A stretch of 38,643 nt of DNA from the IMG/VR virus record IMGVR_UViG_3300042483_000604; one strand, 5' to 3'. This stretch comes from a virus. Its lineage: Duplodnaviria > Heunggongvirae > Uroviricota > Caudoviricetes. The notes below the pieces were generated by a model. It worked only from the letters and a program-made list of their open reading frames with translations. It ran no database searches and had not been told where the DNA came from. Both the position numbers and the translations under genes were made by a program. The stretch's first letter is position 1; every line of letters starts with the position of its first letter. Of this stretch, positions 1,756-29,882 are shown piece after piece.

Positions 1756-1756
1756 A

Positions 1757-8643: not shown

Positions 8644-11600
8644 TTATTTACTTTTTAGTAGTAAAATTTCATTTTGTAGTTCCTGTACTTGTTGGGATAG
8701 GTCTTGAATTGCCTTTACCATTACTGGTAGTAGGTTTGAATATCGAGCTTCTAATTTATCAGGATTACTATTTGACACTAAATCTAAGTGTTCTCCTATT
8801 TGACTATTCTCTTGAATTTCAAGCAAATCTTGTGCTATAAATCCTGCTGCTTTTATATCTTTTTTAGCTCCATCTCTAGTATCCCATTTAAAGATAATAG
8901 GTTTTAATTGATTTACAAACTCTATACCTTCTGTTATAGGTGTTACTTCTTTTTTATCTCTAATATCTGAAAGAGAGGTAATTGATGTTACTTGACAACG
9001 AAGCGTTGTAATTGAGCTGTTACCTAGTGTAATAGTATCTGAACCACCTCCTATAGCATTAGCTCCTATTACAATTTGATTAGTCTCATTACTGTTTAAA
9101 GCTCTGGTATTAGCTCCTAGGAATACTGAACTACTAGCCATACTCGCAATAGATCCATTTGAAACTAACCTACCTGCTTCAACACCAACTGCTGTGTTAT
9201 TACTTCCAGTTGAATTCGATTGCAGTGCTTTGTGTCCAATTGCTGTATTACTATTTCCGGTAGTATTAAAATACGATGCCTGGAGTCCTGTTGCTGTATT
9301 GTTAATTCCAATTGTGTTACTATATAATGCTCCTATTCCTGTTGCTGTATTTTCACTTCCAGTCGTATTATTAAATAATGCACTAGATCCAATTGCAATA
9401 TTAGAAATTCCAATTGTATTAGATGCTAATGTTCCACCACCAATTGCAGTATTATTACTTCCGCTTGTGTTTGAGTACAGTGCTTGTAATCCAATTGCAG
9501 TGTTGTAGTCACCTGTACTGTTTGTATACAGTGCTTCTTTACCTGTTGCTGTGTTACCGCTACCGTTTGTGTTTGTATATAGCGTATCTCGTCCAATTGC
9601 GGTATTTTCACTTCCGCCTGTATTAGATCTTAAAGCTCCATCTCCAAATGATGTATTAGATGACATATTGCCTTTCCCATTGTTCCAAACAGTTAAATCT
9701 GTAGCGTTTGACTCTAACCATGCAATAGGAGTACTTGTTACCCCTGTTAAAGCAGAACCGTTTCCTGAGAAAGACCCTGTGAATCCTTGAGTAGCAATTA
9801 CTGAACCTGTTACTTGAAATTGTGAACCTGATGCAAATACTAGATTTGATCTAGTAGTGCTGTCACTTCCGTTACCGATTATAAAAGCATTTTCAGCTGA
9901 GGATGTTATATTACTGTTTCCTACTACTGTTTGATAAGCTGCTGATGCAGTCGTGTATGCTCCTTGAGTGTGAGATGCAAATCCTTCTGCACGTGTAAAA
10001 TATCCTTCAGAGTGAGCAGCTGGTCCGTATGATACTGTTCCTCTACCTTCTGCATGTGATGATTCACCTTCTGCGTTATTACCAAATCCTTCTGCATGTC
10101 CAAATGCTCCTGAAGCAGATGTTTGTCTTCCTTCTGTATGTGAAAAGTCTCCTACTGCTACTGTAAAGTAACCTTCAGCATGTGAAGTAGATCCTTGTGC
10201 TATAGTTCCGTTTCCTTCAGCATGTGCTCCTGTTCCTGTTGCTTTAGTACCTTCCCCTTCAGCATGTGAGACAGTTCCTGATGATGTTGTAAATCTACCT
10301 TCAGCGTGTGAATAGTTTCCAGTGGATAATGTATTATCACCTTCAGCATGTGAATAGACTCCTGAAGCTGTTGTAGCATACCCTTCAGTATGTGATGCCT
10401 GCCCTAGTGAGAGTGTATTTTGCCCTTCAGCATGTGAGTAGGATCCTGATGCTTTTGCGAACTGTCCTTCAGCATGTGAACTGTATCCTGATGCTGATGT
10501 AAAGTATCCTTCGGCATGTGAAAAAGAACCGTCAGTACGTGTTTGATTTCCTTCAACATGTGATCCATACCCTACTGTTCTGGTACCAAATCCTTCTGCA
10601 TGTGATGACTGTCCTTGTGTTATTGTTCTTTCTCCTTCAGCATGTGAATAGTCCCCTATTGCTACTGATCCTGTACCTTCTGCATGTGAAAAGTTTCCAG
10701 TTGCTATATTTCCTTCTCCTTGTGCTAAAGATCCTGTTACTCTTAACGATCCTGTAATCTGAGCAGATCCTGTAAATGGAAAAGCTGCTCCACCTCCGCC
10801 GTTTAGAGCGTAAGAAGCTGTTACTGCGTAAGAAGCAGTCCCTTGTAAAGATCCTGTTATACCTTGGGTCACATTTAAAGATCCTGTTATAACAGAAGTT
10901 CCAATTACTTGAAATGCTCCTGCTGTTGCTCCAGAAGCTGATACCTGTAGCCTATATCCTGCATCTGTAAAATCAGTACCATGTATTACGTTTCCGTTTG
11001 CAAGGAATCGAGTTGATTCTACTCCATTGGTTGGGTATATTCCGATATATTTGGTACCATCTGTTTTAATAGTTCCAAAAGTAGTACCAACACCCAGAAT
11101 TAAATCTTGTAATTGGAATGTTCTTCCTGCAGCATATATGTCACCTGTCATTGTACCTCCTGCTAGTGGCAGGTATAGTGGAGCTGATGAAGCAGTTGTT
11201 GCATAAGAAGCAGTGCCAAATAATGAACCTGTTATTTGACCTAATACCTGTAATGATCCTGATACTGTTACTGTTTTGTTAGCAAAGTCTCCACCAATTA
11301 ACGGTGTACCTGAACCTGAACCGATATAAAGTTTATCGTACTCTACCACTACGTTACCTGGTCCTGCTGAATTACCTATGTATACGTTATTAGATCCTGT
11401 TACTGTGTATAGTCCTGCTGCATTCCCTATAGCTACGTTATTATTTCCTTCTTTATTTTGAATTAAAGCACTAGTCCCTATGCCGATATTACCACCTCCT
11501 GCAATACTATTCCCTAACGCTAAGATACCTAGAGCTATGTTAGAACCTCCTGTAGTATTATCCTGTAGGGCACCATTTCCTATAGCTATATTACTATTCC

Positions 11601-11925
11601 CTGTAGTATTCGATATTAGGGCTGCATTACCTAAAGCTACGTTACCGGTACCGGTTGAGGACATGCTATCGTCAAATATATTATTAGCTAAAGCATTTAC
11701 CCCTATCCCTATACTTCCAAGGTATGAATTATTACCCTTCAGCACTAATCCGTTAACTGACCCTGTTACTTCTAATGAACCTGTAATTTGTGCAGATCCT
11801 GTATAAGGGAATGCTGCTATAGCTCCACCGTAGTAGGATGCTGTTAAAGCATGTGAAGCTGTTCCGAATAATGAACCTGTAAACGATGTAGCTTCTACTG
11901 AATCAGCTGTATATTTTTTTGCCAT
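8644..11925 (-). CDS. Long tail fibre / receptor-binding protein with beta-roll repeats and C-terminal peptidase S74 intramolecular chaperone
   Basis: 14-aa N(T/I/V)A(I/L/T)GxxALxxNTxG repeats in two blocks, 18 SHAEG-type repeats, SDIRDKKEV cleavage motif, GFIAQD and a terminal coiled coil. Confidence 0.85.
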   Translation of the reverse strand: MAKKYTADSVEATSFTGSLFGTASHALTASYYGGAIAAFPYTGSAQITGSLEVTGSVNGLVLKGNNSYLGSIGIGVNALANNIFDDSMSSTGTGNVALGNAALISNTTGNSNIAIGNGALQDNTTGGSNIALGILALGNSIAGGGNIGIGTSALIQNKEGNNNVAIGNAAGLYTVTGSNNVYIGNSAGPGNVVVEYDKLYIGSGSGTPLIGGDFANKTVTVSGSLQVLGQITGSLFGTASYATTASSAPLYLPLAGGTMTGDIYAAGRTFQLQDLILGVGTTFGTIKTDGTKYIGIYPTNGVESTRFLANGNVIHGTDFTDAGYRLQVSASGATAGAFQVIGTSVITGSLNVTQGITGSLQGTASYAVTASYALNGGGGAAFPFTGSAQITGSLRVTGSLAQGEGNIATGNFSHAEGTGSVAIGDYSHAEGERTITQGQSSHAEGFGTRTVGYGSHVEGNQTRTDGSFSHAEGYFTSASGYSSHAEGQFAKASGSYSHAEGQNTLSLGQASHTEGYATTASGVYSHAEGDNTLSTGNYSHAEGRFTTSSGTVSHAEGEGTKATGTGAHAEGNGTIAQGSTSHAEGYFTVAVGDFSHTEGRQTSASGAFGHAEGFGNNAEGESSHAEGRGTVSYGPAAHSEGYFTRAEGFASHTQGAYTTASAAYQTVVGNSNITSSAENAFIIGNGSDSTTRSNLVFASGSQFQVTGSVIATQGFTGSFSGNGSALTGVTSTPIAWLESNATDLTVWNNGKGNMSSNTSFGDGALRSNTGGSENTAIGRDTLYTNTNGSGNTATGKEALYTNSTGDYNTAIGLQALYSNTSGSNNTAIGGGTLASNTIGISNIAIGSSALFNNTTGSENTATGIGALYSNTIGINNTATGLQASYFNTTGNSNTAIGHKALQSNSTGSNNTAVGVEAGRLVSNGSIASMASSSVFLGANTRALNSNETNQIVIGANAIGGGSDTITLGNSSITTLRCQVTSITSLSDIRDKKEVTPITEGIEFVNQLKPIIFKWDTRDGAKKDIKAAGFIAQDLLEIQENSQIGEHLDLVSNSNPDKLEARYSNLLPVMVKAIQDLSQQVQELQNEILLLKSK
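9961..10695 (-). repeat. 18 tandem 42-bp/14-aa coding repeats (xSHAEGxxTxAxG)
   Basis: Counted in the translation; DNA shows recurring CCTTC(A/T)GCATGTGA on the + strand. Confidence 0.85.
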
Positions 11926-11939
11926 TTTATTTTACTTTA

Positions 11940-14195
11940 TTACCAGTTATTTTGTACTATATTTACCCATTCATAAGTTGAAGCTCCTGTTTGCATTGAC
12001 ATATCTACATAAGAATTGTTTCCTGATGTTCTATATCTCAATGAACCTACATTCGATATACTTGCTGCTGCTGAATTATTTCCTACTTGTAGAGAACCTG
12101 TTATTGATAAAGAACCAGTAAACTGATGTGTATCGTCTAATGTATCTCCAAATCTAGTAGATCCTGAAGAGAATGATTCAGTAAAGTATGTTACAGATGA
12201 AGATATTATATATTGCTGTGCTGTAAGATTTCCTGTTACTGTTAAGTCTCCTGCTACTGTTCCTCCTGTAAGTGGTAAGTATCCTGGTGCTATAGATGCT
12301 GTTTGAGCATAAGAAGCAGATACCACACTTCCATTGTAATAAGAAGCTGTTTGAGCATATGATGCAGAAGCTACACTTCCATTGTAATAAGAAGCTGTTT
12401 GAGCATATGATGCAGAAGCTACACTTCCATTGTAATAAGATGCTGTTAAAGCATGAGAAGCAGATACTGCTCTTGAAGCTGTTACTGTTAATGTATTTGT
12501 TGTAGCATTATATGAATATAAAGTACTATCAATATATATTGCATTGTTTATCGTACCATCTGTAAATAACGGATAGTAAGGTCCTGTTCCTGTTGGTACA
12601 TCTATTACATCTATGTATGATGCTGATTGTGCATATGAAGCACTTAATGCAAAATTTGAGTAAGAAGCTGTTACTGATCCTAGTAGGTGACTTGCTGTTG
12701 CTGCATTTGTTGCAAAAGAACTTGATCCTGCTTGTAGTGCATAAGAGGCTGTTTGTATAAATGAAGCGGTTGCTGCATAAGAAGCAGAAGTTGCTATGGA
12801 AGCTGTATTACTAGATTCAGCAAAAAAAGCAGAAGTTGCTATAGATGCTGTATTGCTATTCTCTGCAAATGAAGCTGATATAGATGATGATGCAAACCCT
12901 ACTGCTTCTGTATATGAAGCAGATATTGCAAAAGTTGCTGTAATGGCTGTTGGTGAAACAATTCCTGTTATCCCTGATCCGTCTCCTACAAATAGATTTG
13001 CTGTTATAGTATCTGTTACTATTAAAGATCCTGTAATACTTGCACTTCCAGATAAAGATCCATCCCACTCTGCTGCTATACCTGTTAACCCAGATCCGTT
13101 TCCTGTAAATGATCCGGTATAAGATCCAGTATTAAATGAACCTGTAAATGTATTAAATGCTGTTAATGTTGTTAATCCACTTGTATTGAAATAGGAAGCA
13201 GTTGTTGCAAAAGAAGCAGATGTTGCTTGATTAGAAATTGTTGCGTAAGAGGCAGATACTTGAACTGGTGCCCATGAAGCAGATAATGCTTGAGAGGCGT
13301 AAGATGCTGTTCCTAGTAAAGAACTTGTTATAGATGTAGCGTGTATATTTCCTTCTACTTGTAATTTTCCTAGAGTTGGGGTTGCAGTTCCAATACCTGT
13401 ATTACCGCTTGAACTAATATACATTCTAGGTGTTACAAGTCCATTTGAGAAAAATCCTATACCATCGTCATATATTACTGATCCTAGTGCTGTAGTATTA
13501 AAACCTCCTGCTTTCCAGTGTATTCCGTTTGTTGGTACTATATCAACTCCTGCTACTGATTGTATCTTTCCTGTTACTTGTAGTGTTGATGATACTGTTT
13601 GACTACCTGTTATATCTAGAGATCCTGTTAATACTACATCCTGTATTAATGGATTAACATATGATGCTGTTTGTGCACTTGTAAATGATCCACTCCAGTA
13701 TGATGCTGTTGCAGCATAAGAAGAAGATATTGCGTAAGAAGAACTTGCTATCGAACCACTCCAATATGAAGCTGTACTTGCAAAAGAAGCTGATGTTGCA
13801 TTTGTTACAGATCCTGTAAAGAAAGAAGCAGTTACTCCTGTCAATCCTGATCCATTTCCTGAGAAAGAACCTGTAAAAGAACCTGTAAAGTTACTTCCTG
13901 ATGCCTGGTATCCGTTTAGGTTTAGGCTTGTTAAGTTTGATCCATTTCCTGAGAATGATCCTGAGAATGATCCAGATACTCCTGATGCAAATCTTAGGTC
14001 TACATTTCCTCTATCTACTCTAAGGGATCCTGATATATCTACACTTCCTGTAATTATTCCATCCCATTGTGAGGAAGCTGTTACGTATAGAAGGTTAGAT
14101 CCATCTCCATAGAATGCAGAGGCAGATATGGATTGACTCACATTAAGTGAGCCTGATACCTGTACATCGTTATTAAATATATGCTCGTTAGCCAT
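11940..14195 (-). CDS. Ser/Ala/Thr-rich tail fibre protein
   Basis: ASYA heptad-like repeats, FxG(D/N)GSxLT modules, GNTGIGTATP and YLPLTGGT fibre motifs. Confidence 0.75.
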   Translation of the reverse strand: MANEHIFNNDVQVSGSLNVSQSISASAFYGDGSNLLYVTASSQWDGIITGSVDISGSLRVDRGNVDLRFASGVSGSFSGSFSGNGSNLTSLNLNGYQASGSNFTGSFTGSFSGNGSGLTGVTASFFTGSVTNATSASFASTASYWSGSIASSSYAISSSYAATASYWSGSFTSAQTASYVNPLIQDVVLTGSLDITGSQTVSSTLQVTGKIQSVAGVDIVPTNGIHWKAGGFNTTALGSVIYDDGIGFFSNGLVTPRMYISSSGNTGIGTATPTLGKLQVEGNIHATSITSSLLGTASYASQALSASWAPVQVSASYATISNQATSASFATTASYFNTSGLTTLTAFNTFTGSFNTGSYTGSFTGNGSGLTGIAAEWDGSLSGSASITGSLIVTDTITANLFVGDGSGITGIVSPTAITATFAISASYTEAVGFASSSISASFAENSNTASIATSAFFAESSNTASIATSASYAATASFIQTASYALQAGSSSFATNAATASHLLGSVTASYSNFALSASYAQSASYIDVIDVPTGTGPYYPLFTDGTINNAIYIDSTLYSYNATTNTLTVTASRAVSASHALTASYYNGSVASASYAQTASYYNGSVASASYAQTASYYNGSVVSASYAQTASIAPGYLPLTGGTVAGDLTVTGNLTAQQYIISSSVTYFTESFSSGSTRFGDTLDDTHQFTGSLSITGSLQVGNNSAAASISNVGSLRYRTSGNNSYVDMSMQTGASTYEWVNIVQNNW
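12298..12441. repeat. 3 x 48-bp tandem repeat (TASYYNGSVASASYAQ)
   Basis: Units at 12298, 12346 and 12394; the last two are identical except for one base. Confidence 0.9.
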
Positions 14196-14208
14196 GTCTT
14201 ATATTGTT

Positions 14209-14844
14209 TTATACTTTTCTCTTAAATGCTGTTACTAGCATATTTATCTCGAAGTTTCCTCCTACTGCATTTACTGATAAAGAAGCAGATGTTAAAGAAG
14301 AAGCATTTAAGCTAAATGTACTATTTATTGCATCTCCTGTTGCTACTACATAATTATCTGATATATCTGCATGTCCTGATCTGTCCCAAGTACCTAATAA
14401 TGTACCTACTTTCTTTTCGTTTTCAGTAGCAGTTGTTAGGACATAGTCTGCTTTAAATCCAGCGTAACCTGCTGAGGCAGATATTGGGAAAGTCATCAGA
14501 GTTGTCACTCCTGAGAGGCTACTTGTTGAGTATTGAAATATATCTACTTTAGCAGCTGTTGTACTTCCTGTTGTAATAGTTAAAGTACTTCCTACTGTTA
14601 CTCCTTGAAGTGATGTACTTCCTGATATAACTGTTAAAGATCCTGTAATAGCTGCACTACCGCTTCTAATTCCATTCCAGTTGGCTGTTGTTATACCTGT
14701 TAGTCCTGATCCATTTCCTACATAAGATCCAGAAAAAGAACCGCTAAAAGAACCACTTCCTTGAAAAGTAGTTCCTGGTTGCATTATTATAGATCCTGAT
14801 ACTACTAAAGGCCCTATTACTGTTAAATTACTTATTGTTGGCAT
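14209..14844 (-). CDS. Short tail fibre-associated structural protein
   Basis: Shares the GNGSGLTGI..WNGIR..ITGSL module with flanking fibre genes; beta-rich C-terminal domain. Confidence 0.65.
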   Translation of the reverse strand: MPTISNLTVIGPLVVSGSIIMQPGTTFQGSGSFSGSFSGSYVGNGSGLTGITTANWNGIRSGSAAITGSLTVISGSTSLQGVTVGSTLTITTGSTTAAKVDIFQYSTSSLSGVTTLMTFPISASAGYAGFKADYVLTTATENEKKVGTLLGTWDRSGHADISDNYVVATGDAINSTFSLNASSLTSASLSVNAVGGNFEINMLVTAFKRKV

Positions 14845-14865
14845 ATTTTGTTATGTTTATTTTTA

Positions 14866-16698
14866 CTACGGTACTCTTACCATTACAAAGGGTCCGTCTT
14901 TATATAGAGCTCCAATCGGTAATGACATTACCCCTGCATAGTCTTGTTGTATATCTAGTAACTCAGGCATAAATACCTTTACAGCATTCAGTGTTAATAT
15001 TCTTTGTGCAAAATCTCCTTTTATTAAAGCGTCTGGTCTTGTTGAATTATCTATATAAAGCTGATCATACTCTTCTGATATGTAATCTCCTGAGTTTGCT
15101 CCGATGTATACATTTCTTGCTCCTTTTTCTAGTTTTGGACCTCCTGCTTCAAAACCTATACCTACATTTGCCTTACCGTCAATAAGGTTCCTAAATGCTC
15201 CTTTACCTACAGCTGTATTGTATGCACCGGTTTCTAGAGATGATAGAGTTTCTGCGCCTATTGACACATCTGCATATCCTTGCCTTACTTTAAATAAAGA
15301 TAAGTACCCCAAAGCAGTCTCAAAACTCGATTCATTAGCTTTAGATAGTACTTGACTTCCTATTCCTGTTGAATACTTTCCATTGTTACCTCCTCCTGCT
15401 AGATATCCTAAGTATGACGATTCGTTTCCTGCTCCTTGACCTGCTCCATACCCTACTGCAACAGTCTGACTGGTTGCTGATTGACCTGCTGCATATCCTA
15501 TTGAAACAGTTTGATCCTCTGCTTGTGATCCTGCATAAAATCCTACTGCTACACTACTACCTGGTGAATTATTTAATGTATTTTCCCCTACACCAATTGA
15601 ATCTGTTGTTGGGTTGTGTATTTTAATATTCTGATGAATAGTTGTAACACCTTTTAGGTTAATGGTCGGTGAAGACCCTGATACAATAAATGATCCTGTT
15701 ATCTCTGCATTTCCATTTCTTCTACCATTCCATATTGCTGTAGAAGTAATACCTGTTAACCCTGATCCATCTCCTATAAATGATCCTGAGAATATAGATC
15801 CTGATATTGAAGAAACTCCTGTAAAATTTACTGTTGTTCCTACTCCTCCTGATACAATTAATGATCCTGTTATTTGTGCATTACCGTTTCTAATACCATT
15901 CCACGTTGTTGATACTCCTGTCAATCCTGCTCCATTTCCTACGAAAGAACCAGAGAAAAGCGATGCAGACACCTGGCTATGTATAGTTACTTGACCAGTT
16001 GCAAAATCACCGTAAATAAGAGGTGTATCGTCTGGTATATTATTTATGTACAGTTTATTGTCCTGTAAGGGAGTATTTGTAATCGGTCCTGCTCGGTACC
16101 CTAAGTACAGATTTCCACCACCACTACCTACGTTTTCTGCTGTACCGTATCCTAAAGCTGTATTACTATCTCCTCCATTTAGGTTTATTAGTGAATCACT
16201 TCCTACTACTGTATTTGCTTCACCTGTTGCATTTCGTAAGGAAGAGTTACCTACTGCAATATTAAGTTGGTTATGCAACTCATACCCTGCATTTTGTCCA
16301 ATAAGTATGTTATTAGCGTCTAGAGCATTTGTTCCTGCACCAGATCCTATACTTAGATTTCCTGCTGCATCTATTGGTTCAAATCTTCCAGCTAGAGTTA
16401 GTATACTTCCATCAAAAGTAAGATACTGCTCTCCTTGAAGTGATGCTCCTCCAGTTGCTGTTAATAACCTATTGTTTTGATTACCATCTATTGTTACTGT
16501 ACCTCCTCCTGGTGCTGGTAATTCAACACTGTGGTATGTTGGGTCGTCTGTATCGTTATCGAACCATAATTTTAACTCTTTTGAAGTAGAGTTAGGTATA
16601 TTGTGAATGGAACTTGAGAAGTAAACAGAAGAGAAGTTCTCATCCATTTCTACATGGGTAAGAGCTGCTCCTTTACTTGTTCTAAATGTTATTGCCAT
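14866..16698 (-). CDS. Tail fibre protein with beta-roll repeats
   Basis: N-terminal RxxKGxALTxxEMDxNF anchor; two blocks of GxxAG repeats, each closed by LYIxN...LIxGDFA. Confidence 0.75.
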   Translation of the reverse strand: MAITFRTSKGAALTHVEMDENFSSVYFSSSIHNIPNSTSKELKLWFDNDTDDPTYHSVELPAPGGGTVTIDGNQNNRLLTATGGASLQGEQYLTFDGSILTLAGRFEPIDAAGNLSIGSGAGTNALDANNILIGQNAGYELHNQLNIAVGNSSLRNATGEANTVVGSDSLINLNGGDSNTALGYGTAENVGSGGGNLYLGYRAGPITNTPLQDNKLYINNIPDDTPLIYGDFATGQVTIHSQVSASLFSGSFVGNGAGLTGVSTTWNGIRNGNAQITGSLIVSGGVGTTVNFTGVSSISGSIFSGSFIGDGSGLTGITSTAIWNGRRNGNAEITGSFIVSGSSPTINLKGVTTIHQNIKIHNPTTDSIGVGENTLNNSPGSSVAVGFYAGSQAEDQTVSIGYAAGQSATSQTVAVGYGAGQGAGNESSYLGYLAGGGNNGKYSTGIGSQVLSKANESSFETALGYLSLFKVRQGYADVSIGAETLSSLETGAYNTAVGKGAFRNLIDGKANVGIGFEAGGPKLEKGARNVYIGANSGDYISEEYDQLYIDNSTRPDALIKGDFAQRILTLNAVKVFMPELLDIQQDYAGVMSLPIGALYKDGPFVMVRVP

Positions 16699-16708
16699 AG
16701 TACTTTAT

Positions 16709-16716
16709 TATAAATA
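16709..16716 (-). promoter_or_regulatory. Putative late promoter TATTTATA
   Basis: 10 nt upstream of the fibre ATG; recurs upstream of other structural genes. Confidence 0.5.
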
Positions 16717-16737
16717 TCTTCTTTTAATCTTCTATTG

Positions 16738-18375: not shown

Positions 18376-18385
18376 ATTACTTATT

Positions 18386-19459: not shown

Positions 19460-19462
19460 TCA

Positions 19463-20497
19463 TTAATAATCCAACTTGATTCTTACTAATGCTTCTTTTG
19501 TGAAATCCTTTAAGAGTGGTTTAGATAGTTTTGCTACTGCTAAAAGGTCATTATTATCGTTATATAACCCTACTGTTGTAATATATGCTTGAGGTGTATT
19601 GATCATAATATCATGTCTCAATTCTCCTGAACCTGTAATGTTAGAAGGGTTTGTTGAATAATTAAATTCACTATTTCTTACTCTAACAAATATATAGTTT
19701 GAAGATACTGTTTCTTCTGCTTGTGCTTCAAAGTACAATCCTCCTGAGATAGCATTGTAGAATTTTCTTGTATTTTCACTATCAGTAATAGGGCCAACAG
19801 CTTGAACTGTAGCTAAGTCTATACCTCCTGCTCCGGCTGTATCGTCTAATGCTTCTCCGTTAAGTACTATGATTCCTACATCTGGTAAAAATTTACCGTA
19901 ACTTCCTCCTGTTTGGTTATATCCACTGGTTGCAGATGTAACGTTAAGGTCCCATGGTTGCCCGTTTGATCCACTAATAACGTCGTAAACTCTTCCTGAG
20001 TCTACATAAGAGATAGTTGTTAATGCTTTACTATTATCTGTTAAGGATATAACATCTCCGTTTGGACCTTTTAGTTTTAAGTTAAAACTACCTGGTAGTA
20101 GTTTTTCTTTATACCTACTTCTGTCTATAGAGATTACATAAATGTAGTCAGAAGATTGATTTTGAAATTGAAAAACTGTATCTTCATCTCCAAATACTAA
20201 ATTCCTATACTGTCCGTATATTGTCGCTGATGGTGATTTTCCTGCTGCTCCTACGTTATAGTTTACTGATCCTCTCCCTAATCTATCTCCATAGGTAATT
20301 CCCATTTGAGCTACTGCTGTAGCATCATTGTTGATATTTGCATTAAATATCCTAGTGTAGTATTCTCCAGAAGTGGAGTACTGAGCAGATGATGTAAAAA
20401 ATGTAGTTAACAATTTACTATTTGTAGACCATAGAGGAGTTACTACTGACTCTGCACTGATGGATATATCTTCTGGATCTAATCTTTTAAATGCCAT
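19463..20497 (-). CDS. Baseplate/fibre-attachment structural protein (paralog of the downstream gene)
   Basis: RVRNSEFNYSTNPS...YITTVGLYNDNNDLLAVAKL...IKLDY versus RVRESEFNHTYNPS...VKIDI. Confidence 0.65.
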   Translation of the reverse strand: MAFKRLDPEDISISAESVVTPLWSTNSKLLTTFFTSSAQYSTSGEYYTRIFNANINNDATAVAQMGITYGDRLGRGSVNYNVGAAGKSPSATIYGQYRNLVFGDEDTVFQFQNQSSDYIYVISIDRSRYKEKLLPGSFNLKLKGPNGDVISLTDNSKALTTISYVDSGRVYDVISGSNGQPWDLNVTSATSGYNQTGGSYGKFLPDVGIIVLNGEALDDTAGAGGIDLATVQAVGPITDSENTRKFYNAISGGLYFEAQAEETVSSNYIFVRVRNSEFNYSTNPSNITGSGELRHDIMINTPQAYITTVGLYNDNNDLLAVAKLSKPLLKDFTKEALVRIKLDY

Positions 20498-20500
20498 ATC

Positions 20501-21160
20501 TTATTGATTTACTTTTACTATAGTTACTGGAATAGTTAATCTAGCACCTGAATCTCTACCAATCACTGTAAGTGTTGTTTGAAGTGATGTATTATCTCCA
20601 AATAGTGTATTAATTGTTGTTGCAGTTATGTTGATAGAAGTTCCAATTACTGCTTTAGAAACGTTTGTTCCTAGGGTAGTAGTTGAGTTTAATCTTTCAG
20701 CTTCTGAGGTATTAATACCTACTCCATTAAATGTATTTGTTACTCTAGCGTCTGCAATAGTTGCTACATATCCTCCAGCTTCAAAAGTTTGAGAAGATCC
20801 TAAATAATTTAATGTTTGAGGAGTAATTGCAAGTGATGCTCCTTGTTTTAATCTAATAGCCGAGAATCCTAAATCTAGAATTGGTAACTTAGCAGTTCCT
20901 CTTGGAAGAGTTGTAAGTTTATACTTCATGATTTGAGTTTCATCCGGAAATGCTTCTAGTAGTGGCATTTTTTCAATAGCCTCTCCATAATATGCTGATC
21001 CATTTGGATGTGTTGGATTATATAATGTGTAATCAATCTCATCATCTGCTAAAGCAAATTGAGTGATTTTGAAAGAACCATCACCTCTTGCAAGTAATTC
21101 TCTTCCTTTTTTAGTTAAAATTGCATCAACTGTTACAATTGAATTATCTAAGTATCCCAT
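20501..21160 (-). CDS. Conserved baseplate structural protein
   Basis: AILTKKGRELLA..FKITQFALADDEIDY resembles the N-terminus of fibre-attachment domains; position in the baseplate module. Confidence 0.6.
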   Translation of the reverse strand: MGYLDNSIVTVDAILTKKGRELLARGDGSFKITQFALADDEIDYTLYNPTHPNGSAYYGEAIEKMPLLEAFPDETQIMKYKLTTLPRGTAKLPILDLGFSAIRLKQGASLAITPQTLNYLGSSQTFEAGGYVATIADARVTNTFNGVGINTSEAERLNSTTTLGTNVSKAVIGTSINITATTINTLFGDNTSLQTTLTVIGRDSGARLTIPVTIVKVNQ

Positions 21161-21179
21161 TTTGTGTTTTTTATCTTAT

Positions 21180-21187
21180 TATAAATA
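21180..21187 (-). promoter_or_regulatory. Putative late promoter TATTTATA
   Basis: Intergenic, 19 nt upstream of the ATG at 21160. Confidence 0.5.
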
Positions 21188-21214
21188 TACGTTTTTTTAT
21201 TATTTTATACAACC

Positions 21215-22450
21215 CTAAGTTATACACAGACTACTGCTACTATAAACTAACCCGTATTCATCTGTCTCTAGTATCTCTTTTGAATCTTTTACCCATATTC
21301 TAGAATTTGTTGAATTTACAATTTTTGCACTTGTATTATCTACTTTAAAAATCTTTAAAGGCTTTACTGTAAGAATTTTACCGTATTGCGGCAAGGTTGT
21401 AGGTGCTGTATTTAGGTATCCTCTTGTTACTATCAATGTATTTGGTAAACCTCCTATTCCTGGTCTAATTCCAGTTACCCTTAATTTTTCTGATAGTATT
21501 ACTCCTGTGTCTTTATTTTGGATCTGTAATATACTGCCTATTTCGACAGGACTTATATCAAGTGAACTGGTTGTTCCGTATGCTAGAGAAATAACAGGCG
21601 CAAGATTTTGTTGCAATAATTCATACTTTGTACTTACAAGTCCGTCGAAAGAAGGTGTCTCCTGGTCTCCTGTAAATAGAAATTCTGTCGTTACCCTATC
21701 TGTTAATGATCTTGAACATATTAACTGATATGCAGAGGATGATGGATTCTGTTCTCCTACAAATGTTTTAGCTGTTATTGCAGGTGGAATTCCTTTATAA
21801 CTCTGTGCATCTGTTGTTGATCCTCTATACCTTGCGTTACTCCATCCTGTAGATGAGTAATTACTGTCTTGTATTTGTGCTTTTTCTGCTGAACCTGATA
21901 ATATTTTCGGTAGGTTTGTAGGATTTACTCCTGATCCTACCCTGTCTGATTGCTGTATGTAAGTGGAGTTTCTATTTACCAGTGCATTACTGATTAATGG
22001 ATTGAAATCACTATATTCGTACTTCTCATCTTGAACATAAGGTAGAAAAGCAACCTCTATTTGATCTACTCCTCCTTGATCTTCATTATTAGGAGTTCTA
22101 TTAAATTCTATCGGCAATATTTCAAAGTAGTAGTAATCACTTATTGGATTACTAAAACTATTAGGATACTTAGACCTACTTTCGATAGGTATTAAATATA
22201 CCTGCCCATCTACAACAAATCGGATGCTGGTTGCAGTTAGTAGTACATTCTCTAGATCTATTTGATTTAGAGGTGATGTCTGTAAACTCCAATCTCTCCT
22301 TGTAGCAACTGTTACAGTAACCCCTGTTACCATAACCTTGTTAGCGTTGTCTGTAGGATGTGGTTCACAGCATACATTTATACTGGCATCCTTATTTATA
22401 TTGGTAAGGTTGTCTGTTTGATGTAAGAAAAGGAATGTTGCTATATTCAT
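21215..22450 (-). CDS. Putative baseplate-associated structural protein
   Basis: Gene context; AQIQDSNYSSTGWSNARYRGS segment; function not otherwise assignable. Confidence 0.55.
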   Translation of the reverse strand: MNIATFLFLHQTDNLTNINKDASINVCCEPHPTDNANKVMVTGVTVTVATRRDWSLQTSPLNQIDLENVLLTATSIRFVVDGQVYLIPIESRSKYPNSFSNPISDYYYFEILPIEFNRTPNNEDQGGVDQIEVAFLPYVQDEKYEYSDFNPLISNALVNRNSTYIQQSDRVGSGVNPTNLPKILSGSAEKAQIQDSNYSSTGWSNARYRGSTTDAQSYKGIPPAITAKTFVGEQNPSSSAYQLICSRSLTDRVTTEFLFTGDQETPSFDGLVSTKYELLQQNLAPVISLAYGTTSSLDISPVEIGSILQIQNKDTGVILSEKLRVTGIRPGIGGLPNTLIVTRGYLNTAPTTLPQYGKILTVKPLKIFKVDNTSAKIVNSTNSRIWVKDSKEILETDEYGLVYSSSSLCIT

Positions 22451-22465
22451 TTTTATTTTTATTTA

Positions 22466-25400
22466 TTAAAGTGTAGACCAACTTGCACCTGTACCTGGGC
22501 CATGGAGACTGTTACATAGTATTACTCCTGTATTAGCGCTGTTTGTGTTTTGAACTTGTGTATTAGGGTACCCGTTAGTGTAAAAGTATGCGTATGTTCC
22601 ATCACTATACCATCCACTTATAGGTACGTCAGTTCCAACAGTTCTTAAAAGTTTTCCTGCAGTCCATAATCCTGGGAAGTCATAAGGAGGTTGGTTAATT
22701 AGCTTTGTATAGTATACTTGTCCGAGTAGTCCTACTTCCCCTGATGAGACATTTAAAGCACCGTTTGTACATGCTTCGTTTGGACCTCCTGCACCATAGT
22801 TTATTCCTATATTTACAATCTCTGTTGCTACTCCTGATTTAAGAAGTCTAATAACTCTTTCACAATTGTCCGGTACGTTTACTAATTTAACCCACACTGC
22901 CCTAGAACCAAATGTAAAGTTCTGTGCTTGTGCAGTTGTTAGTTGCTGTATAGCAGGTACAGTAATTGCTCCCCAGTTACTAGGTTTAGCAAGTCCGGGA
23001 TATACGTAGTAGGTTGCATTTGGCAATTCTCCTTCAAAGAAAGTTGTTAAGTCTATATTAAGTACGTCATTTCCATAATCTCCTGCAAAGAGGTCAATTT
23101 GTGTATCTTCCTGTGGTGACAAGAAACAGTTATAAAATGCTCTACTTACTGATGTTTTACAGGTAGGGTCATATGTATCTGCTACAGTAACGGTATACCT
23201 GTCCCCTGTAATACCGCCGACAAATGTATAAGTAGAGGTTCCTGGAGGAAGTGGTACCGGTGTTTCGTTATTCTTCTGTACTGTATACACTACTTGAGTG
23301 TTTACGCCTAGTGGGAACCAGTTTGCGAAGTTATAACTTGCTCCTGCTATTATATAGTTTGGTGCTGTAATAGGTCCTAATGTACAAGCTACGGTACGGA
23401 AGTTTACCGTTTCGTAACATGTCTCGTTTGATCGTCCGTATATAACTGTTGAGTTGTATTGAGGAGCTGTAAAAGTGTACGTAGATGGAATTACTTGTCC
23501 TGTTGCAGAATTAAGACGGTATACTGTATTAACAGGTGCTGATACTCCATTTTCTCCGAATAGTGGACCTAGTGCGTATGGAATATTTGGCTTTACAGTA
23601 AATGTATCGTTGGCTAATGGCTTTAGTGTACATGTTCCTGGTGGCAGGTCTTCATAAAACTTTATATTAAACTGAACTCTTGGTGGGATTCCTTTCTTTA
23701 ATACATTATTATTATTAAGCTCTCCTGTTGTTACTCTAATAAAACTATTTGCTAATTCTCCATCAAACTTTGCTTCTTCTTTGTTTTTAGCAAGTGATAC
23801 GGTTCTTCCTATTGGTGTTTCTACCACCTGTTTGTAAGAAGCTGTATATTCTACTACTGCTCCAAAAGTATCTCCGTGATATCCTTCCGTGAAAGCTGTA
23901 TTAATAGATGATGTATAGTTGAAAGCATTATCCATTGAAGCAGATAGAATTGTATCTACGGATGCTTTTACTGATTTTGCTTTTGATCTATTAAGTAAAT
24001 TTGGTTTAATTATTATACCCGTATCTGCTACTGTTCTAGCAGGTACAAAGTCTTTAACCATCTTAAAGATTACGTTATCAAAAAATTTAATTAACCTAAC
24101 ATATGCTCTTACATCGTATTGTGATAAATTTCCTAATATGTCTTCTGCTACTTTATAAAGACCCTCGTAATCTGGGAGTATTAGATTGCTTGGATCTCCT
24201 ATATACTGATCTATATTGAATGTAGCCAGATTTGGATCTGCTAATGATTTAGATATAATATACTTATCTACGTTATCTGTTGGAGAAAATCCTACTTCAA
24301 TAACATGTAAGTCATCTGTATACTTATTATCTCTTTTTATTATAGATGTATAGCTTGATAGAGTATCTCCTGGTATGATACTTCCTGTATTGTCAATTCT
24401 TATCTTATCTAAAGAACTTGTATAGTACTGGTAGTCTCCGTAGAATGGTCTTTCATTTGTATTTCTACCTCCATATAGTTTTATATTTAATATATCTGAA
24501 GGAATACCAAAACAGTTTATAAGTGCTCTTAGTCCTCTCTCTGTACCTTTTGTTTTTAGTAAATAAGAAAGGTTATGGTAAATTCTTTTTTGGATCTCTT
24601 TTTCATAAGTATCAAAAGAAGAAGGCTCAATAGGTGTATTAGATCCTATTAATGATCCTGTTATATAAAAATTAATCTTCTCACTTCCAGATATATAACC
24701 CTGTCCTATAAAGCTTGAAAACAAGTCTTCAATAGACTTATTAGAAGTATATAATTTAACTCCAAAATTCTTTAAAGCTTCTCCAACTAAGTCTTTAGAA
24801 ATACCTTTGTTCATTCTATTATCAGCATCATACTTATCTGTTACTGCATCTGCATATAACCATAAGTTATCAAAATGCTGACCTATCATATGAATAAATG
24901 TCAGGTAATTCTCATTATTTACATCTTCTCTAAGGTATGATGGTATGGAAAATATTAATGAATTATAATTTGTATTATCATATGAAATTGCTTCTGCAAC
25001 TTGGTTGGAATACCATAGAATTGATTGTGGTGTAGTACTTACTTGGTTCTGGTATGGTTTACTATTATTTGATTTTGGCCAACTAGAACTTCCTGATTCA
25101 TAATATAAGAATCTTTCGTAATGATCGAAGTTATTTAAAACTCCTTCCATTAATCCTTCAAAATATGTTCTACTTCCTGATATTCCTTGAAGACCTTGTA
25201 CTCCTTGAGTACTTGGTGTTTGATTATCTATAGCTGATAGACTTGCAGAGTATGATGTAACTAAGTCTAATTTATACTTAAAATTAATTAATCTCTCTTG
25301 AGCTGATGAAAAATGTATAAAGTCACTATATGATGTATGGTCAATACTTATTTCAACTCCTTTTTCGTTAACTAGAGAGAATAGTTGACTATTTGCATTA

Positions 25401-26206
25401 TTTACTGGGTAGCTAAATAATTCATCGTAGTTAAAGTATTGGGTAGGTATGATGTTCTCATCTTGTATTTCTATATTGAAGTTAGCAGGTTTTAGAGTTG
25501 GTAATACTACCGGTTCTGGTGTTATTTCAGATTGTACTTCGTATGCAAGAGAATCAGCTACTAATTCAACTACTCTTAACTTACTCTTTATTCCATAAGT
25601 AAAAGGTAGTGGTTCGTATAGTTTTACTGTTACTTCTTTCTCTGTTAAGTTATCTAAGGTATCTATGTTGATACCGATAAGTAAATCGTTATCACCAAAA
25701 TTTAATCTAAACTCATTAAAGAAAGCTTCGTTATTTAATTTATCCTTTATTACAGTGGTAAATCTTTCTAGATCTGTAGGGGATAATGTTAATGAAGCAA
25801 GTTTTAATTCTGTTCTATCTGGTGAGATGTCTTGTATGTAAAGCTCTGCAGTTGAGGTATTATCTGTAAATAGGTCGTTTAAGAAGTGGTATAGTAACTT
25901 AACTCCTCCATTACCGTAATCAAAAGCTATACTATCCTGTATAGGATCTATTGTAAGTACTGATGTCCCTTCTTGTCCTGCAGATTGAGCGTTTCCTAAC
26001 TGTTTATAACCTCTATAATCATATTCACTAAATAGTATCTCATCACTAAGTGTTAATAGGTGAAGTTCAACTACATGCTTACTGGTATCAAAAGAACTAT
26101 TTACTTCAAAAGAAGAAATTAACTGTGTATCCTCTGTAGAATATCTTTCAACACCTGCTATATTTTCCGGTATGTCTCTACTAGCTATATAATTTATTTC
26201 TGCCAT
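22466..26206 (-). CDS. Large baseplate wedge protein (gp7/P2 gpI-like core) with C-terminal Cys-containing repeats
   Basis: IPSYL..FIHMIGQHFD and LLKTKGTERGLRALINCFG wedge motifs, KMVKDFVPART; variable beta-rich tail. Confidence 0.65.
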   Translation of the reverse strand: MAEINYIASRDIPENIAGVERYSTEDTQLISSFEVNSSFDTSKHVVELHLLTLSDEILFSEYDYRGYKQLGNAQSAGQEGTSVLTIDPIQDSIAFDYGNGGVKLLYHFLNDLFTDNTSTAELYIQDISPDRTELKLASLTLSPTDLERFTTVIKDKLNNEAFFNEFRLNFGDNDLLIGINIDTLDNLTEKEVTVKLYEPLPFTYGIKSKLRVVELVADSLAYEVQSEITPEPVVLPTLKPANFNIEIQDENIIPTQYFNYDELFSYPVNNANSQLFSLVNEKGVEISIDHTSYSDFIHFSSAQERLINFKYKLDLVTSYSASLSAIDNQTPSTQGVQGLQGISGSRTYFEGLMEGVLNNFDHYERFLYYESGSSSWPKSNNSKPYQNQVSTTPQSILWYSNQVAEAISYDNTNYNSLIFSIPSYLREDVNNENYLTFIHMIGQHFDNLWLYADAVTDKYDADNRMNKGISKDLVGEALKNFGVKLYTSNKSIEDLFSSFIGQGYISGSEKINFYITGSLIGSNTPIEPSSFDTYEKEIQKRIYHNLSYLLKTKGTERGLRALINCFGIPSDILNIKLYGGRNTNERPFYGDYQYYTSSLDKIRIDNTGSIIPGDTLSSYTSIIKRDNKYTDDLHVIEVGFSPTDNVDKYIISKSLADPNLATFNIDQYIGDPSNLILPDYEGLYKVAEDILGNLSQYDVRAYVRLIKFFDNVIFKMVKDFVPARTVADTGIIIKPNLLNRSKAKSVKASVDTILSASMDNAFNYTSSINTAFTEGYHGDTFGAVVEYTASYKQVVETPIGRTVSLAKNKEEAKFDGELANSFIRVTTGELNNNNVLKKGIPPRVQFNIKFYEDLPPGTCTLKPLANDTFTVKPNIPYALGPLFGENGVSAPVNTVYRLNSATGQVIPSTYTFTAPQYNSTVIYGRSNETCYETVNFRTVACTLGPITAPNYIIAGASYNFANWFPLGVNTQVVYTVQKNNETPVPLPPGTSTYTFVGGITGDRYTVTVADTYDPTCKTSVSRAFYNCFLSPQEDTQIDLFAGDYGNDVLNIDLTTFFEGELPNATYYVYPGLAKPSNWGAITVPAIQQLTTAQAQNFTFGSRAVWVKLVNVPDNCERVIRLLKSGVATEIVNIGINYGAGGPNEACTNGALNVSSGEVGLLGQVYYTKLINQPPYDFPGLWTAGKLLRTVGTDVPISGWYSDGTYAYFYTNGYPNTQVQNTNSANTGVILCNSLHGPGTGASWSTL

Positions 26207-26545
26207 CTACTCTATTTTTGTTTCTAAGTCAAGGATTTGTTGATTTGCTTGTAATAGCTGAATTCTTAACTGCGCTATTTCATCTAAAAGAGGTTGTATA
26301 TCTTCTGTATCTCTTTCGTAAGATATTAATTCTGAACTTTTTCTTATTAAATACTCATGTGAGTTCTCTTCTCCCTCTATATCAATTGTAAAATACAGTT
26401 TTTCATACAACCTGAATAGTTCTTCTGCTGTATCTGTATCTTCCTCTGGTATTGGTTGAGTATATGTTCTAAACCCTTTATCAATTACCTTAGAAAATTC
26501 TGTCTTATTATAGACTGTTTTTATTATTTGAATATCATTAGCCAT
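26207..26545 (-). CDS. Small baseplate-module protein with C-terminal coiled coil
   Basis: Overlaps/abuts its neighbours; LLDEIAQLRIQL heptads. Confidence 0.6.
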   Translation of the reverse strand: MANDIQIIKTVYNKTEFSKVIDKGFRTYTQPIPEEDTDTAEELFRLYEKLYFTIDIEGEENSHEYLIRKSSELISYERDTEDIQPLLDEIAQLRIQLLQANQQILDLETKIE

Positions 26546-27647
26546 TTCTTACTACTTTGAATATATTTTGATTATCCACTACTGTAGTGCTTCCGTCTAA
26601 TGTCGTCTTAACTAATATACGATAATATCTCTCAGGTTGCAAGCCATCCATATACACATCAAAGAATGGTCCTGTTGGATCGCAGCTAATTTTTGTAAAC
26701 TGTGTATCGAAATCAATAACCATCTCCTCTGTATTCTCATCTCGTAATCCCCAATATGAACTTGAAGGAAGAGCGTAGTTTGTTAAGTATATTGAAGAGG
26801 TTGTAAAAGTTCTAACCGGGTATTTAGGTTTTGCAGTTAATCTAAATCTCTGCTTTCCTACGTCTGCATACTTTCCTCTATTATTCTTTATACCGATAGT
26901 TGATATGCTATTTGAAAGAACTGATAAAGATCCTGTAGTGTATGTACTATCATCCCACTTGAATTCTAAGAATGGTGGATAAATTGTATTTGTGTCTAAG
27001 CTGTAATACTTTAGCCTAATAGAGGAAGACATGTTATACTCTATATCATCTGAGAGTTTAAAGATAAACCCGTCATTTACCAATGTATTGGAGTTGATTT
27101 GACTAATTGCTCTTGTTACATTTATAGAAACATCGTGAGTAGAATTTATACTATGTGATTGTGTAAATTCCATGTTAAATCCTGCTGAAGCTGTGTACCA
27201 GTTTCCTCCTCCATTTAGTGGTGAATCATAAGAACCTGTTACAAAGGATGGGTAAGATCCTTGCAACCAAGGGCTAGCCTCTGTTGATTGTCTATATTGC
27301 CAAGACACTCCAGTTTTATTAGTTGGAATATCTCCAAACTTCCCTATCCCACTATCCCATGCTCCATAGACTGGGTATGCATATACGGTGTAATCTATAG
27401 GGAGTTCATATGCTTCTGCCAGGTACATACCAAGGCTTGCACTATATCCTAATGCTCCGATTTTATTTGCAATTACATCCTTAATATCTGCTGTACTGAA
27501 TTTGGTAAGTATTCGGTTTGTTTGACCTACTCCTGTTATATCTGGGTATCCTCCTAATTCAACTATTTCGTCTTTACCTGCATTTCCTAAGACATTCTCA
27601 CTTGATATGAATGCATCTTTTTCTGGGAATATTCTGTATACTGCCAT
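26538..27647 (-). CDS. Beta-rich virion structural protein
   Basis: IFPEKDAFI...PPFLEFKWDD beta-sandwich-like domain plus a second Ig-like domain; context. Confidence 0.55.
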   Translation of the reverse strand: MAVYRIFPEKDAFISSENVLGNAGKDEIVELGGYPDITGVGQTNRILTKFSTADIKDVIANKIGALGYSASLGMYLAEAYELPIDYTVYAYPVYGAWDSGIGKFGDIPTNKTGVSWQYRQSTEASPWLQGSYPSFVTGSYDSPLNGGGNWYTASAGFNMEFTQSHSINSTHDVSINVTRAISQINSNTLVNDGFIFKLSDDIEYNMSSSIRLKYYSLDTNTIYPPFLEFKWDDSTYTTGSLSVLSNSISTIGIKNNRGKYADVGKQRFRLTAKPKYPVRTFTTSSIYLTNYALPSSSYWGLRDENTEEMVIDFDTQFTKISCDPTGPFFDVYMDGLQPERYYRILVKTTLDGSTTVVDNQNIFKVVRNG

Positions 27648-29472: not shown

Positions 29473-29882
29473 TATTGTTCGAAATTAATTAATAATTCGT
29501 CTTGTATATTTGTTTGATCTACACTATATCTTATGTAGATTGTTACAGTATGTGTGTCTGGTATTTCTTCTACTAGGAGCTGTTCTATTATTACATTAGG
29601 AAACCAATCTACTATTCCTCTTCTAACCTCTATCCTGATCTCTTCTTGAGTATCCGGTGTCATTTGGTTAAATAATAATGTTCTTAGGTTTGTTCCAAAA
29701 TTTGGATTTAAAAACCTTTCCTGCCTTCCTGTTAAAAAGAAATTAATTAAATTAGATTTAAGTGCATCTTTTGTTGTGTATGTAGAGTTGAATACAGCCT
29801 TAGAGGAAAACGGGAGACTAACGCCAACTGCTTTCCTAGGTTGTAAATCTATTGGATGTATTTTTTGTACACTAAATGCCAT
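29472..29882 (-). CDS. Baseplate wedge / sheath initiator (T4 gp25-like)
   Basis: LINFFLTGRQERFLNPNFGTNLRTLLF is the gp25/GPW signature. Confidence 0.9.
   Translation of the reverse strand: MAFSVQKIHPIDLQPRKAVGVSLPFSSKAVFNSTYTTKDALKSNLINFFLTGRQERFLNPNFGTNLRTLLFNQMTPDTQEEIRIEVRRGIVDWFPNVIIEQLLVEEIPDTHTVTIYIRYSVDQTNIQDELLINFEQ

Follow-up and report, generated by a model that had tools for sequence, protein, structure and literature searches.

In streptococci and staphylococci, the serine-rich-repeat adhesins are modified by GtfA-GtfB, an O-linked N-acetylglucosamine transferase that consists of a cytoplasmic pair of GT-B-fold proteins, one of them with a degenerate glycosyltransferase (GT) signature, and that acts on serines in repeats of the S-A-S type. 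Chloroviruses encode a GT-B enzyme that is held to modify the structural proteins of the virus without recourse to the host secretory machinery, and the glycans of their capsids are N-linked at atypical sites; we know of no two-subunit arrangement and no [ST]-G-S motif in this machinery. The general O-glycosylation of Bacteroidota acts in the periplasm, which phage virion proteins do not visit. As for bacteriophages themselves, mycobacteriophage GTs have been proposed or shown to decorate virion proteins, with glycans at the C-termini of capsid and tail-tube subunits (Freeman et al. 2023, Cell Host Microbe; as summarized in PMC12619734), and, as far as we found, virion glycosylation has been shown for a few mycobacteriophages only and without a short sequon. 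Here, we analyze a 38,643-nucleotide stretch of a tailed phage genome (IMG/VR record IMGVR_UViG_3300042483_000604; from here on, the window), whose tail genes are rich in the tripeptide [ST]-[GAS]-S (from here on, the motif), and we discuss whether this motif may be the acceptor site of a phage-encoded GT. The underlying observation is real, specific and widespread: namely, in this phage and in hundreds of relatives, the motif occurs three to six times more often than by chance in the outer tail, baseplate and fibre proteins.

The window belongs to a viral contig of 58.7 kb, and all of its long open reading frames (ORFs) lie on the minus strand. A close relative is Flavobacterium phage vB_FspM_immuto (immuto in the following), a 160-kb myovirus with a DNA identity to the window of approximately 85%. 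A preliminary description of the window had counted the motif by hand, and our recount returned exactly the same numbers, i.e. 8 copies in 357 amino acids (aa), 7 in 369, 11 in 1246 and 11 in 211. The two large fibres contain 35 and 61 copies. The counts expected from composition were derived from shuffles of whole proteins as well as from shuffles inside blocks of 30 or 15 residues. For the first four proteins, whole-protein shuffles predict 2.4, 1.7, 3.4 and 3.5 copies, respectively (p 0.0005 to 0.0015), and the block shuffles give almost equal expectations. The composition-matched shuffling that the preliminary description had proposed as a check thus leaves the excess in place. What is more, nine globular baseplate proteins taken together contain 39 motifs where 14.6 are expected (z 6.6), while the pentapeptide form, hydrophobic-[ST]-[GAS]-S-hydrophobic, occurs 15 times in them as compared with an expected 1.5 (z 10.8). 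The motif had also been described as nearly absent from enzymes. The count behind this statement, 2 copies in approximately 1,350 aa of primase, exonuclease, HD, nucleotidyltransferase (NTase) and sigma-like proteins, is correct, but it does not amount to a depletion, as composition predicts just that. Namely, the window's non-tail proteins taken together have 8 motifs where 7.1 are expected, and therefore the signal is an enrichment in tail proteins and not a depletion in enzymes. The reported scarcity in gp6 and gp25 holds as well, the gp6-like protein having a single copy and the gp25-like protein none.

When all tripeptides are scored in the baseplate set, SGS (13 copies, 3.3 expected) and TGS (12 copies, 3.4 expected) are the most over-represented among those observed at least 12 times. 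In general, T-G-S and S-G-S are the main carriers of the excess, followed by S-A-S, T-A-S, T-S-S and S-S-S. The 57 sites use 46 distinct 9-mers, and the serine codons at the sites are used as in the background; with codons this heterogeneous, a motif at the DNA level is ruled out and the signal must therefore lie at the level of the protein. One could still argue that a composition rich in S, T and G, low-complexity clustering or the post hoc choice of the motif has produced the excess. Indeed, tail proteins are richer in these residues than enzymes are, and raw counts overstate the contrast between the two. However, the excess stays roughly 3-fold after global, 30-residue and 15-residue shuffles, there is no enrichment of permuted motifs such as GS[ST], S[ST]G or [ST]GT, SGS and TGS lead the well-populated tripeptides of the baseplate set, and the same excess appears independently in Microcystis phage Mel-JY01. 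On the strength of the global and local shuffles and of the permuted motifs we reject such an artefact, whose probability we regard as close to negligible.

The specificity of the motif can be appreciated best from 160 related IMG/VR loci, which are not phylogenetically independent and whose gp6 identity ranges from 92% down to 36%. In these loci, proteins encoded up to 9 kb downstream of gp6 contain 3623 motifs as compared with 1050 expected, and 900 pentapeptides as compared with 106, while the upstream set, made up of inner baseplate and other proteins, contains 294 motifs as compared with 362 expected. In this upstream set S-G-S and S-A-S occur at 0.42 and 0.52 times expectation, which may mean that the motif is avoided where it is not wanted. 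The ratios to expectation are 6.05 for T-G-S, 6.34 for S-G-S, 2.6 for T-A-S, 3.0 for S-A-S and 2.2 for T-S-S, and since the mirror forms S-G-T (0.95) and T-G-T (0.77) show no enrichment, the motif is directional. Similarly, N, D, A or G in the first position and N, A, G or T in the third give ratios near 1 or below; a large or charged residue or proline in the middle gives no enrichment, and a hydrophobic one gives 0.89. In the flanks, position -2 prefers W, F or Y, position -1 prefers V, I or Y and position +4 prefers L, I, Y or F. At conserved sites, substitutions remain in class (TGS/TAS/TSS and SGS/TAS/SAS), and evolution keeps to exactly the motif class that had been chosen by eye. The excess is present in the window alone, in Mel-JY01 alone and in Rhodothermus phage RM378 alone, and of the 80 loci that a profile scan for motif-poor lineages returned, nearly all are rich in the motif. 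As the preliminary description had pointed out, the Bacteroidota O-glycosylation sequon, D-[ST]-[AILVMT], is a different one: D-[GAS]-S is at only 0.95 times expectation, and a hydrophobic middle residue is, as just seen, no better. Given this difference, and given that a cyanophage and a Rhodothermus phage share the motif, we reject host Bacteroidota O-glycosylation as its explanation.

Which virion proteins carry the motif can be seen in immuto, where the whole genome was scored. The proteins enriched at p<0.01 are those of the peripheral baseplate and fibre block, two head-neck proteins of 139 and 373 aa (the latter with 17 motifs, 3.0 expected) and the tail sheath; the sole ORF outside the virion modules to reach this level, of 116 aa, does so marginally (2 motifs, 0.1 expected). 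There is no excess in approximately 80 kb of replication and metabolism genes, in gp6, in gp25, in the tube (0 motifs) or in the major capsid protein (3 motifs, 1.8 expected). In the source phage, the major capsid protein, which is encoded outside the window at positions 54950-56608 of its own contig, has 6 motifs where 2.0 are expected (p 0.018). All ten sites of the immuto sheath fall in residues 62-393 (3.8 expected, p 0.003), while its conserved core (Phage_sheath_1 and Phage_sheath_1C, residues 431-701) has none (0.6 expected). The N-terminal and insertion domains of sheaths with a known structure point to the outside, and by analogy the motif-bearing part of the immuto sheath would do the same. 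By comparison, baseplate, fibres and sheath of phage T4 are without excess: gp7 to gp11 contain 5 motifs where 5.9 are expected, the fibres 17 where 17.1 are expected, and the pentapeptide occurs 0 times as compared with approximately 1.4. This control rules out a general property of myovirus tails, and it agrees with the earlier contention that the repeat structure of fibres does not suffice as a cause.

Could the motif nevertheless be a matter of structure only? The main and serious rival to glycosylation is that the motif is a lineage-specific element of a strand start, turn or bulge, inherited and reused in beta-rich outer tail proteins with no modification involved. The small middle residue would then pack between its hydrophobic neighbours, and the hydroxyls would make capping or inter-subunit hydrogen bonds. 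The rival has to be taken seriously because a conserved serine at strand edges is also what structure alone would lead one to expect, and the sites are indeed conserved by position. In the 369-aa family (the window protein and 66 homologues, approximately 55% identity), each of the 7 sites carries the motif in 35 to 59 of the 67 aligned sequences, and in the 357-aa family (the window protein and 17 homologues) 6 of the 8 sites are conserved in 12 to 16 of 18. The third-position serine, Ser-3, is kept in 70% of homologues, as compared with 39% for other serines of the same proteins (five families, p 7e-7). In the model of the 369-aa protein (predicted local distance difference test, pLDDT, 91.6), which has two beta-sandwich domains and resembles carbohydrate-binding modules (CBM; 8wab, template modelling score 0.68 normalized to the target), the motif sites lie inside beta strands or in coil directly before them; the model of the 357-aa protein is of low confidence (pLDDT 58) and was not used. 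Where a site forms part of a strand, both hydroxyls would point to the same side as the aromatic residue at -2, and the small middle residue to the opposite side, together with the hydrophobic residues at -1 and +4. The hydrophobic and aromatic flanks, as well as the regular repeats of the fibres, of which the motif forms a part, fit a structural role too.

Several results, on the other hand, are difficult to reconcile with structure alone. First, the tail, baseplate and fibre proteins of T4 are equally beta-rich and show no excess. Second, the motif recurs in the outer domain of the sheath and in families without profile similarity. In profile-profile comparison (hhalign), the 357- and 344-aa families are homologous in their C-terminal domains (probability 99.2%) and all other pairs stay below 1%, which leaves at least four motif families without profile-level similarity, bears out the earlier statement that the carriers are non-homologous, and rules out one promiscuous shared domain, as the domain in question is common to these two families only. 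(In Mel-JY01, five consecutive ORFs at L094:27125-36071 match the 357-aa protein, with BLASTP E-values of 1e-8 to 4e-22, suggesting an expansion of paralogues in that phage.) Third, threonine, the better beta-former, is not tolerated in the third position, as the ratios for SGT and TGT show. Fourth, motif copies exceed expectation at non-conserved columns as well (1.05 to 1.9 times the whole-protein expectation). Finally, the fold can do without the motif. The 484-kb megaphage LR756508, which has only three relatives in IMG/VR, all near-identical, has homologous baseplate proteins (gp6 38% identical) with a weak excess of 11 motifs over 5.0 expected, and its homologue of the 369-aa protein has lost nearly every site, as has that of the IMG/VR lineage L051. 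Hence homologous folds exist in both that lack the motif at most sites. The L051 homologue (L051:11395-12447) has SCS, DAS, TES and AAS at the sites, and the frequent retention of Ser-3 while the first two positions drift is, in turn, a point in favour of a structural role. On balance, we consider a purely structural motif unlikely, though by no means far-fetched.

If the motif is read by an enzyme, where is the latter encoded? The preliminary description had seen no modifying enzyme in the window, and neither the window nor its 58.7-kb contig in fact holds a GT. In immuto, however, a 10-kb cluster of sugar and GT genes (49.2-60.0 kb; Table 1) includes a GT1, a GT1-like and two GT2 genes, plus sugar-nucleotide enzymes. 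A complete 162-kb genome of an uncultured relative has the same gp181-gp180-gp179-gp178 core, with gp181, gp180 and gp179 at 89 to 92% identity, and a sugar-nucleotide part that is replaced relative to immuto. The same is seen in 80 IMG/VR loci anchored on gp180: gp181 adjoins it in 79 and gp178 is found in 67, while the immuto sugar-nucleotide genes are found in just 5 to 9. In Mel-JY01, gp181 (split), gp180 (43%) and gp178 (37%) follow each other in the immuto order, and here, too, a methyltransferase accompanies the GTs. This gp181 could be a GT-B enzyme that is split by nature, or else a pseudogene or the result of a sequencing error. RM378 keeps gp181 (E 1e-47) and gp178 (E 3e-20), and a neighbouring gene matches gp180 weakly (E 3e-5). 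Its baseplate block includes p124 (L268:45985-47136), labelled 'similar to UDP-galactopyranose mutase' in the record, which hints at galactofuranose synthesis tied to virion genes. Overall, the core GT pair recurs in each motif-rich lineage with a complete genome that we examined, while it was not found in the covered part of one 93.5-kb contig (55% complete).

The two members of this pair appear to be virus-specific. Among 50,697 phage records, gp180 is found in immuto and Mel-JY01 only, all members (100%) of the ESM Atlas cluster of gp181 are viral, and the LR756508 record has a gp181-like gene with gp180 absent throughout. In a profile search of the PDB, the best solved relative is the chlorovirus GT B736L (PDB 3OY2), with E 2.6e-8 for the gp181 family (residues 199-342) and E 0.0048 for gp180. 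A model of the gp181-gp180 complex scores 0.87 (best control 0.00), with a contact agreement of at least 98% between runs and a partner pLDDT of at least 88; by our rough counts, obtained with custom alignments, such a score is reached by 58 of 80 solved complexes and by 2 of 110 mismatched pairs. From this modelling, gp181 and gp180 are predicted to form a heterodimer.

When would such a module be expressed, and what would it act upon? The sequence TATTTATA occurs 30 times on the coding strand of immuto; of these, 26 are intergenic, and with two exceptions a start codon follows the intergenic copies at a distance of 9 to 41 nucleotides (nt). Nearly all structural operons (baseplate, terminase, portal, sheath, tube and tape-measure) have such a copy in front of them, as has a lysis operon, and one copy lies 30 nt ahead of gp182, a small gene with which the GT operon begins. 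Judging from these positions, TATTTATA behaves as a late promoter, and the GT operon would be expressed late. The same sequence is present on the minus strand upstream of the window's structural genes. A late-promoter motif of this kind also stands before immuto gp013-gp015 (L081:10527-13422), where this lytic phage encodes a C-type lectin protein and a cohesin-domain protein with Por_Secre_tail (type IX secretion). As to the target, liquid chromatography with ultraviolet and mass-spectrometric detection of immuto DNA has found dA, dC, dT and fdPreQ1 in place of dG, and no other nucleoside (bioRxiv 10.1101/2023.04.13.536721). With these published nucleosides, DNA is therefore an unlikely target of the GTs in immuto; a 2026 paper in Nucleic Acids Research on glycosylated 5-hydroxycytosine makes no mention of these phages. 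A module common to Flavobacterium, Microcystis and Rhodothermus phages would, moreover, hardly be aimed at the surface polysaccharide of one host.

Taken together, the most economical explanation is in our opinion that the tripeptide has a lineage-specific reader, and since the late GT4 pair is the sole conserved virus-specific candidate that we found, we favour the reading of [ST]-[GAS]-S as an O-glycosylation acceptor motif for this pair, with a probability of roughly one half. The sequon for a phage-encoded GT that the preliminary description had proposed is partly supported, by the motif statistics and by the GT module of relatives, though not by a GT on the contig itself. The mechanism that we envisage is as follows. 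On the outward-facing parts of the tail, that is on the fibres, the peripheral baseplate and the outer domain of the sheath, the acceptor or recognition motif would be [ST]-[G>A,S]-S, as a rule embedded in [WFY]-[VIY]-[ST]-[GAS]-S-[LIYF]. Its reader would be a phage-encoded two-subunit GT4, made of homologues of immuto gp181 and gp180 and working in the cytoplasm late in infection, and this pair would O-glycosylate the invariant Ser-3. A conserved GT2 (gp178), together with sugar-nucleotide and extending enzymes that vary between lineages, would then build a variable glycan. It follows from this scheme that the source phage itself should carry the GT module and that the module should act on tail proteins, with Ser-3 as the acceptor. 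An extension of the idea, to which we subscribe with somewhat less conviction, is that a large and mostly uncultured superfamily of aquatic myoviruses, with Bacteroidota, Cyanobacteria and Rhodothermus as hosts, coats its exposed tail with O-glycans at [ST]-[GAS]-S by means of a virus-specific heterodimeric GT4, the glycan being diversified by the lineage-variable enzymes.

That said, a number of points weigh against glycosylation by the GT pair. The GT genes of immuto are approximately 33 kb away from the tail genes, and the 58.7-kb contig of the source phage, which is without GT genes, stops short of the syntenic position. In Mel-JY01, stop codons break the gp181 homologue into ORFs of 190 and 302 aa (record positions 83444-84932), and LR756508 retains its gp181-like gene despite having little excess. 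The RM378 sheath and homologous baseplate block are not enriched. The co-variation of motif and module comes down to approximately four positive lineages, all of them interrelated, plus one or two negative ones. Lastly, a conserved serine beside hydrophobic residues, at or just before beta strands, is equally a prediction of a structural role.

It is also conceivable that the reader is a different one. In this case, the serine would carry another modification, or the motif would itself be a weak glycan-binding patch, while the GT cluster would serve some other purpose; candidate modifiers include a small kinase-like protein (5733..6176), which could phosphorylate the serine, and putative Pol-beta NTases (1..2665), which could nucleotidylylate it. 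The specificity and the distribution of the motif argue for a lineage-specific reader without identifying which one, the aromatic residue at -2 would share a strand face with both hydroxyls, and the 369-aa protein is CBM-like. However, it would be unusual for convergent evolution to write a binding patch each time as one and the same directional tripeptide in many different folds, the GT module is the only conserved virus-specific enzyme module that we found to track the motif, and the kinase and the NTases are leads only. We therefore hold another reader to be rather improbable, and clearly less probable than a structural motif.

The arrangement of the tail genes is as follows (Table 1). The gp25-like and gp6-like wedge proteins are followed by proteins of 369, 112, 1246, 411, 219, 344 and 357 aa, for none of which Pfam or PHROGs has a family, and then by the collar-domain fibre, the spike-like protein, the 211-aa fibre module and the two large fibres. 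The enriched block of RM378 has no Pfam or PHROGs family either. The fibre module G-[ND]-G-S-G-L-T-G (14209-16698, and fibres 8644-14195) includes N-G-S, and NGS occurs 11 times in the fibre set where 3.6 copies are expected; the module also matches the Pfam Chlorovirus glycoprotein repeat, though below the threshold.

Table 1. Tail genes of the window, with motif copies seen and expected from composition, and genes of the immuto sugar/GT cluster.
Gene product	Location	Strand	Motifs seen vs expected	Remarks
Tail fibre/spike, 1093 aa	8644..11925	-	35 vs 11.3	C-terminal Peptidase_S74 chaperone domain
Fibre, 751 aa	11940..14195	-	61 vs 18.7	[ST]-[AG]-S-[YF] repeats, e.g. SASYAQTASYYNGSVA three times
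Fibre-module protein, 211 aa	14209..14844	-	11 vs 3.5	SGSFSGSFSGSY...GNGSGLTG...ITGSL
Tail-spike-like protein, 610 aa	14866..16698	-	8 vs 3.7	Two copies of the fibre module of the 211-aa protein
Tail-collar-domain fibre protein, 545 aa	16738..18375	-	4 vs 1.8	Alone not significant
Peripheral baseplate protein, 357 aa	18386..19459	-	8 vs 2.4
Peripheral baseplate protein, 344 aa	19463..20497	-	3 vs 1.6	Family 148 vs 52; C-terminal domain homologous to that of the 357-aa protein
Baseplate protein, 411 aa	21215..22450	-	5 vs 1.7
Large baseplate wedge protein, 1246 aa	22466..26206	-	11 vs 3.4	Family 331 vs 98
Baseplate protein, 369 aa	26538..27647	-	7 vs 1.7
Inner wedge, gp6-like (607 aa) and gp25-like (136 aa)	27649..29882	-	1 vs 1.55; 0 vs 0.11	Internal negatives; family ratios 1.3 and 0.4
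gp181, 480 aa	immuto cluster			GT4-type; Glycos_transf_1 above Pfam cut-off
gp180, 436 aa	immuto cluster			Degenerate paralogue of gp181 (over 152 residues); Glycos_transf_1 below cut-off
gp179, gp178 (GT2)	immuto cluster
Other cluster genes	immuto cluster			DegT/WecE-type aminotransferase (per record), sugar-type methyltransferase, PglD-like acetyltransferase, epimerase/dehydratase, further GTs

If glycosylation at the motif is indeed what happens, a protein-glycosylation sequon would be defined for a bacteriophage for the first time, and glycosylation across the tail, as opposed to the C-termini of capsid and tube, would be without precedent. The sequence would then suffice to predict glycosylation sites in hundreds of environmental phages, and the large "orphan" GT islands that are common in big aquatic phages would find an explanation. 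The tail would, in addition, wear a coat of sugars, with possible effects on host recognition, adherence to polysaccharides, grazing or stability. With both immuto and its host, Flavobacterium sp. LMO8, in culture, the idea can be put to a direct test.

How does this candidate system compare with the known ones? By sequence, both the gp181 and the gp180 families have their best solved relative in B736L, a GT4 enzyme of chlorovirus NY-2A, with the similarity limited to the C-terminal Rossmann domain. With the general O-glycosylation of Bacteroidota, the candidate system shares the host phylum of immuto and what would be an O-linkage to serine or threonine. The likeness to GtfA-GtfB lies in gp181 and gp180, two paralogues that sit side by side and for which binding to each other is predicted, and in fibres with dense SAS and TAS repeats. 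GtfA and GtfB are not among the matches of the PDB profile search, in which B736L, TreT and BshA-like GT4 enzymes were found, and Pfam gives no DUF1975, the insertion that belongs to the GtfA/GtfB type. Moreover, the acceptor sites would here be mostly single tripeptides in folded beta-sandwich proteins and not long, disordered, serine-rich repeats. The mycobacteriophage system, as far as its published summary goes, is similar in that here, too, the reaction would be cytoplasmic and late and would take place on structural proteins, and in the methyltransferase that stands beside the GTs of immuto and Mel-JY01. It differs in its hosts, which are Actinobacteria as opposed to Bacteroidota, Cyanobacteria and Rhodothermus. 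Unlike the C-terminal glycans of mycobacteriophages, the candidate sites described here are internal and many, and are spread over the fibres, the peripheral baseplate and the outer sheath, with the immuto tube and capsid not being enriched.

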